A DNA stretch of 3,083 bases from a plasmid: the NCBI RefSeq assembly GCF_054482595.1, contig NZ_JBTHVH010000002.1. One strand, given 5' to 3'. The notes under the pieces were generated by a model, which had not been told where the DNA came from, did no database searches, and worked only from the letters and a program-made list of their open reading frames with translations. Position numbers and translations under genes: made by a program. Positions 2,762 to 3,083 of this stretch are shown piece by piece (the stretch's first letter is position 1; the number at the start of each line of letters is the position of its first letter).

Positions 2762-3083
2762 TTATCTGTCGAATAAGTTAGAGCCTGGGTATTTATTTTT
2801 GTGCTCTCTTTTTATTATTTTTATTTCCTCTATTATTAAATCCATCTCTTTATAAATATTTGAAATTTTCTGTGTTATCTCTTTCATTTCAGTACAGAGT
2901 GAAATTATTTTATGCATCACCTCTAGGTACTCTTTATCATTCGGACTCATCCCTTTATCAAATAATTTTTTCTGCATCCGACCAAGTTGTATTAATTCAT
3001 CTAGATATCTAGAAGGCACGCGCTGTTTTATTTCATTATTTAAACTTACTGTCCTTATATACTCTGAGATTGTCAGCCCTTCG
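2762..3083 (-). CDS. Hypothetical protein, 5'-partial (frame open to the window edge), AT-rich; function unknown
   Basis: Track ORF 2762-3019 begins at a GTG with no ribosome-binding site. The same frame has no stop for 21 more codons to position 3083 (…EGLTISEYIRTVSLNNEIKQR-VPSRYLDEL…), so the true start probably lies beyond the window. Stop TAA (plus-strand TTA 2762-2764). Convergent with the 1927-2715 gene. Confidence 0.5.
   Translation of the reverse strand, partial: EGLTISEYIRTVSLNNEIKQRVPSRYLDELIQLGRMQKKLFDKGMSPNDKEYLEVMHKIISLCTEMKEITQKISNIYKEMDLIIEEIKIIKREHKNKYPGSNLFDR

Follow-up and report, generated by a model that had tools for sequence, protein, structure and literature searches.

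A 14-bp palindrome in mobA of a small Escherichia coli plasmid as a probable coincidental spelling of a conserved peptide

The stretch of DNA considered in this report, a window of 3,083 nucleotides, carries at positions 3000 to 3013 the sequence TCTAGATATCTAGA, which is its own reverse complement. A previous sequence-only reading had offered three explanations: an operator for a dimeric regulator, a recognition sequence of the restriction or recombination type, or coincidence. Only the last of these survives our analysis. The palindrome very probably has no function of its own and arises by coincidence from the codons used for the conserved peptide SRYLD, residues 60 to 64, which follows the ribbon-helix-helix (RHH) domain of the NikA-like protein MobA. 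The 7+7 symmetry, read directly from the sequence, is perfect over 14 bp, as had been claimed, and it stops at the flanking bases A2999 and A3014. No other perfect palindrome of at least 14 bp occurs on the replicon, the runner-up being a 12-bp palindrome centered near position 427. XbaI recognizes TCTAGA and EcoRV recognizes GATATC; within the palindrome, the XbaI site occurs twice (at 3000 and 3008) and the EcoRV site once (at 3004).

The window is a complete circular plasmid cut open. Megablast alignment showed it to be the whole of the circular 3083-bp plasmid pLH10-b-1-j (NZ_CP100540.1), which comes from an E. coli isolated from chicken, rotated by 1325 bases. Three E. coli genomes from chicken (NZ_CP100540, NZ_CP190026, and NZ_AP039436) contain the identical plasmid. 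The replicon type of pLH10-b-1-j is Col(MG828), and its record carries three genes: repL, a hypothetical open reading frame (ORF), and mobA on the minus strand. In its typing by MOB-suite, the plasmid is classed as non-mobilizable. Since the circle has been opened inside mobA, the starts and ends of ORFs near the window edges are artefacts of cutting, and this bears directly on the apparent position of the palindrome. The sequence-only reading had taken the GTG at 3019 (3017 to 3019, minus strand) as the start of the ORF and had placed the palindrome at codons 2 to 6, 4 nt after that GTG. Walking upstream around the circle, we found no stop codon in the minus-strand frame between 3019 and 3083; the frame continues across the junction to an ATG at 107 to 105, which is preceded 8 nt upstream by the Shine-Dalgarno sequence GGAGAG; no Shine-Dalgarno sequence precedes the GTG at 3019. 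The GTG is the internal codon Val58, and because codon 58 is GTT, GTA, or ATC in the homologues, it is not a conserved start.

The gene thus reconstructed has its 5' part at positions 1 to 107 on the minus strand, encoding most of the RHH DNA-binding domain, and its 3' part at 2762 to 3083 on the same strand, with the last base of codon 35, codons 36 to 142, and the stop codon, the frame being open through the window end. Its product has 142 residues, the same length as RefSeq WP_032188787.1 (429 nt). The palindrome lies 177 nt into the coding sequence, in frame, over codons 60 to 64: TCT (Ser), AGA (Arg), TAT (Tyr), CTA (Leu), and the first two bases, GA, of the Asp codon. Even in the earlier numbering from the GTG, it would have occupied codons 3 to 7, 3 nt after that codon. 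It seemed to lie where an ORF begins, a likely place for an operator or a translational element, only because the circle was cut there.

The mobA product is a predicted NikA-like RHH relaxosome accessory protein. It scores 91.4 bits against the NCBIfam model NF041264, “plasmid mobilization protein MobA” (cut-off, 80), and its residues 12 to 78 match the Pfam NikA-like family PF21983 with an E value of 3.8e-16 and 59.4 bits (cut-off, 27). Residues 6 to 51 align with residues 6 to 51 of chain A of PDB 2BA3, the N-terminal RHH domain of NikA from R64 (E value, 1.1e-5). Residues 60 to 64 thus fall just past the DNA-binding domain, where the helical C-terminal part of the protein begins.

A protein of this class gives some substance to the idea of an operator, in which a dimeric regulator, such as MobA, would bind the palindrome to control mobA or a neighboring gene. 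RHH proteins of the NikA kind bind repeated DNA, NikA itself binding inverted repeats in oriT (PMC9282650); MobA is annotated with a transcription-regulation GO term, and the dyad symmetry of the site is perfect. However, the inverted repeats expected for binding of the NikA type lie elsewhere, upstream of mobA. There, within the 100 nt that precede the gene, an oriT-like block on the plus strand (136 to 224) contains one inverted repeat at 139 to 158 (TGTCGGGGC and GCCCTGACA), a second at 176 to 206 (GCGAATGTATTCGC and GACGAATACAC), and the motif ATCCTGT at 207 to 213. This block shares approximately 77% identity with the sequence immediately preceding the mobA-relaxase operon in the IncK2/Z MOBP MPF_I conjugative plasmid NZ_CP126939.1, and it is likely to be the plasmid's oriT, to which the RHH protein would be expected to bind. 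It serves also as a positive control, being approximately 95% identical in small plasmids whose mobA is only 76% identical. True cis-elements are therefore visibly conserved in this family of small plasmids, and the palindrome is not among them.

That statement rests on a comparison of mobA homologues at the level of the codons. The genes were collected from 42 plasmid records, from 57 records in complete E. coli genomes, and from metagenome contigs, the last scanned with a degenerate pattern that left the synonymous positions free. Representative loci, once fetched, gave 24 distinct mobA sequences of 76 to 100% nucleotide identity. The peptide PSRYLDEL is kept in nearly all of them, the exceptions being PLKYLD, PSKYLD, and the D64Y alleles (PSRYLYEL). 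The codons beneath the peptide are not kept: Ser60 is TCT, TCC, or TCA, Arg61 is AGA or AGG, and Leu63 is CTA, CTG, TTA, or TTG. Ten DNA alleles result at the site, with 3, 4, 5, 6, or 7 of the 7 pairs.

The commonest allele, TCCAGGTATTTAGA, has four of seven pairs, which is the floor set by the peptide. The D64Y alleles fall below it with three (TCCAGGTATTTATA, in L005, L006, and L020), and the PLKYLD allele stands level with it (TTAAAATATCTAGA, four pairs, in L018). Five pairs are found in TCCAGATATTTAGA (L004 and L031) and in the PSKYLD allele TCCAAGTATTTAGA (L021), and six are found in TCCAGATATTTGGA (L012 to L014, L019, and L026), in TCAAGATATCTGGA (L002 and L015), and in TCCAGATATCTAGA (L029). 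Full symmetry is reached by the window allele, TCTAGATATCTAGA, and by one other lineage with a different sequence, TCCAGATATCTGGA (L003, L016, and L025). At the mobA site, the exact window 14-mer was found only in H73, H74, and H118, three records of this one 3083-bp plasmid, each from an E. coli of chicken origin. Synonymous codon diversity is 0.28 at codons 60 to 64, compared to a gene mean of 0.17, and this segment ranks 121st of 132 five-codon windows; the ranking argues that no constraint is acting on the DNA beyond that on the protein. Codons 60 to 64 are in fact among the least DNA-constrained stretches of the gene, the opposite of what an embedded cis-element would predict. The sequence-only reading had itself proposed judging the palindrome against synonymous variation in homologues and had named free synonymous variation under a fixed peptide as the outcome that would speak against a function; this is the outcome we observed.

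Two further observations concern the gene in metagenome contigs. The mobA of L029 (contig OLGO01010359.1) is a mosaic: its N-terminal part resembles that of the 2.3-kb plasmids, its C-terminal part resembles that of L030, and in between, around the site, it matches the window allele exactly. Several contigs, among them those of L026 and L031, carry two different mobA copies. Mosaic alleles of this kind point to recombination among co-resident small plasmids.

Set against these data, the operator becomes very improbable. The site is 177 nt inside a coding region, away from the promoter and oriT regions, and 9 of the 10 site alleles do not preserve it. The half-site itself differs between the two palindromic lineages, being TCTAGAT in the window and TCCAGAT in the other. 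A further copy of the 14-mer had been suggested as something to look for on the full replicon; none was found on either strand with up to three mismatches. Nor did a scan of the replicon find promoter-like or terminator-like sites at the palindrome, the scan giving fewer sites overall than in shuffled sequences. An intragenic, unconserved, single-copy site with no promoter-like site nearby is a poor operator for a dimeric regulator, and we infer that no protein binds it.

If the palindrome is not maintained, how surprising is its presence? It had been called uncommon by chance, with an expectation of the order of 0.2 in 3 kb. We counted palindromes with at least seven pairs per half in 2,000 dinucleotide-preserving shuffles, made either over the whole sequence or within 500-bp blocks. 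The mean number per shuffled plasmid was 0.29 for whole-sequence shuffles and 0.33 for block shuffles, and 25 to 28% of shuffles had at least one (P of about 0.25 to 0.28). The earlier figure was thus somewhat low, and the occurrence of one such palindrome is not significant.

The general expectation also takes no account of what is encoded at this particular place. When SRYLD is written as TCN-AGR-TAY-YTN-GA, four of the seven pairs (1-14, T/A; 2-13, C/G; 4-11, A/T; and 7-8, T/A) are fixed under any synonymous choice. The remaining three pair the third base of the Ser codon with the third base of the Leu codon, the G of AGR with the first base of the Leu codon, and the third base of the Arg codon with that of the Tyr codon. 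We enumerated every possible way of encoding SRYLD, with weights from codon usage, and obtained a probability of a perfect palindrome, given the peptide, of 0.04 with the codon usage of the plasmid, 0.027 with that of the mobA family, and 0.019 with uniform usage. The encoded peptide raises the likelihood of a palindrome at codons 60 to 64 of mobA far above that of general chance.

The presence of two palindromic lineages with different sequences does suggest another possibility, namely, that in the 3.1-kb RepL/MobA plasmids it is the dyad symmetry at codons 60 to 64, rather than the sequence, that is kept by compensatory changes. Such symmetry might allow the transferred single strand to form a hairpin or a cruciform, or it might be recognized by the clade-specific, RepL-associated orphan protein of 262 residues. 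Site positions 3 and 12 are T-A in the window and C-G in L003, L016, and L025, and since both alleles are perfect palindromes, the difference looks compensatory; moreover, the three alleles of the CTN-Leu group that have six or seven pairs occur mostly in 3.1-kb plasmids that carry the extra 262-residue ORF. The comparison hints only weakly at a compensatory change between the window and L003 lineages, however. The L029 allele, which shares its local flanks with the window, has a C/A mismatch at this pair (TCC...CTA), and either of two transitions, C>T or A>G, restores the pairing. Two independent palindromic lineages are therefore expected from transition-biased drift alone. In L002 and L015, which belong to the same 3.1-kb group, the pair is broken again (TCA...CTG), and L029 is nearly palindromic yet has no homologue of the extra ORF. 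Folding of the mRNA around the palindrome gave a 5-bp stem of -4.8 kcal/mol (z = +0.40 relative to shuffles), no better than the shuffles. We regard a lineage-specific structural element as very unlikely.

The third possibility, an XbaI/EcoRV site cluster or the core of a site-specific recombinase target selected as such, we consider extremely unlikely. In its favor, the recognition sequences are literally there, TCTAGA twice and GATATC once, and to that extent the description of a restriction-type site was correct; no sign of selection accompanies them. The replicon encodes only RepL, the 262-residue orphan, and MobA, with no restriction-modification, recombinase, or resolvase gene and hence no cognate for the site. 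The XbaI and EcoRV sites are absent from all related alleles, except for a single XbaI site in L029 and in L018. Restriction sites are in any case normally avoided rather than selected, and recombination sites are conserved, are usually non-coding, and have spaced arms; the site here lies inside a gene, is unconserved, and has no spacer between its arms.

Two XbaI sites flanking an EcoRV site might also suggest an engineered linker, a candidate that we rejected. The ORF is unbroken, and its alignment with natural homologues contains no gaps; an allele that differs by one transition occurs in a metagenome (L029); and three independent chicken isolates carry this same plasmid. The tetranucleotide CTAG occurs nine times in the window, at 1133, 1467, 1765, 2299, 2407, 2501, 2923, 3001, and 3009; a second-order Markov model predicts 4.2 occurrences, and base composition predicts 10.9. 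CTAG is rare in E. coli chromosomes; it is not avoided on this plasmid.

We are left with coincidence as the reading that the alleles support, given that they vary at the site and that the commonest has four of seven pairs. The palindrome is explained by coding constraints and chance: it is not conserved, it is not repeated, and it occupies no regulatory position. In the lineage of the window, all three of the pairs that depend on synonymous choice happen to match. The final step was most likely a single synonymous transition, TCC>TCT, in an allele resembling that of L029; parsimony favors this direction because TCC is present in 20 of the 24 distinct mobA sequences. The palindrome as such therefore matters little, carrying no signal beyond the encoded protein. 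It does illustrate that a conserved peptide may on its own account for most of the pairs in a palindrome, so that palindromes in coding DNA are best judged against synonymous variation, as had been proposed for this one. Of practical use, the plasmid of the window has two XbaI sites and one EcoRV site that are missing from its relatives.

The remainder of the plasmid shows several features in its own right. RepL belongs to Pfam family PF05732. Directly upstream of repL, whose start is at about 1383, iteron-like copies of GTCTATCA are seen at 1284, 1306, and 1360, and the inverted form, TGATAGAC, occurs at 1330 to 1337; the region from 1284 to 1367 is probably the origin or operator of RepL. 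A GC-rich stretch at approximately 750 to 1210 has no annotated gene and is about 90% identical to hundreds of plasmids of approximately 1.5 kb from E. coli, Klebsiella, and Salmonella with little or no annotation (951 records). Its 3' end, at approximately 1115 to 1190, presumably resembles the sequence beside the ColE1/pBR322 origin, and Rfam found no RNAI or RNAII in the stretch. At an E value of up to 0.1, the only Rfam match on the replicon was to U7 snRNA at 2476 to 2534, which at 23 bits is below the gathering score of 34 and which we take to be due to chance.

The orphan protein is encoded on the plus strand at 1927 to 2715 and has 262 to 270 residues, depending on the start, which RefSeq places at a GTG at 1903. 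A search of 1.84 billion representatives gave only 18 relatives at an E value of 1e-3 or less, and four libraries gave no family match. Its AF2 model, which is confident (pLDDT, 85), has a long central helix (residues 128 to 179) between alpha+beta parts and has no significant PDB neighbor. A relative with 36% identity (L033) is encoded on a chromosomal island, directly downstream of a RepL-like gene that it overlaps by 4 nt and with an AlpA-like gene adjacent. Because the relative again adjoins a RepL-like gene, the orphan may be a conserved partner of RepL rather than cargo.

Three kinds of known system offer comparisons with this locus. The operators of the RHH repressors Arc, Mnt, CopG, and MetJ are, like the palindrome, short symmetric or repeated DNA on a replicon that also encodes an RHH protein. 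Those operators, however, overlap promoters and are conserved together with their regulators, whereas the palindrome described here is intragenic, unique, and unconserved.

A second comparison is with the pCERC7/NTP16/pU302S group of small Col-like plasmids. Small plasmids that carry nikA and an R64-like oriT but lack a relaxase gene have been described as a group, with I-complex plasmids as their presumed mobilizing partners in trans (PMC9282650, citing Moran and Hall 2017). The gene that bears the palindrome here encodes a protein which, from its domain matches, resembles the NikA of these plasmids and of the IncI1 plasmid R64. Relaxase is likewise missing from the replicon, and where the group has NikA with an R64-like oriT, the present plasmid has a conserved inverted-repeat block directly upstream of mobA; it, too, is probably mobilizable in trans by I-complex plasmids. 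The replicons differ, being ColE1-like in the nikA-only plasmids and RepL-type, Col(MG828), in the plasmid described here. The likeness moreover concerns the gene and not the palindrome, which lies outside oriT and is no feature of the family.

The comparison that holds in all respects is with the incidental palindromes and restriction sites of coding DNA. As in those, the symmetry at mobA codons 60 to 64 is mostly dictated by the peptide (four of seven pairs), is completed by the choice of synonymous codons, and is lost in relatives.
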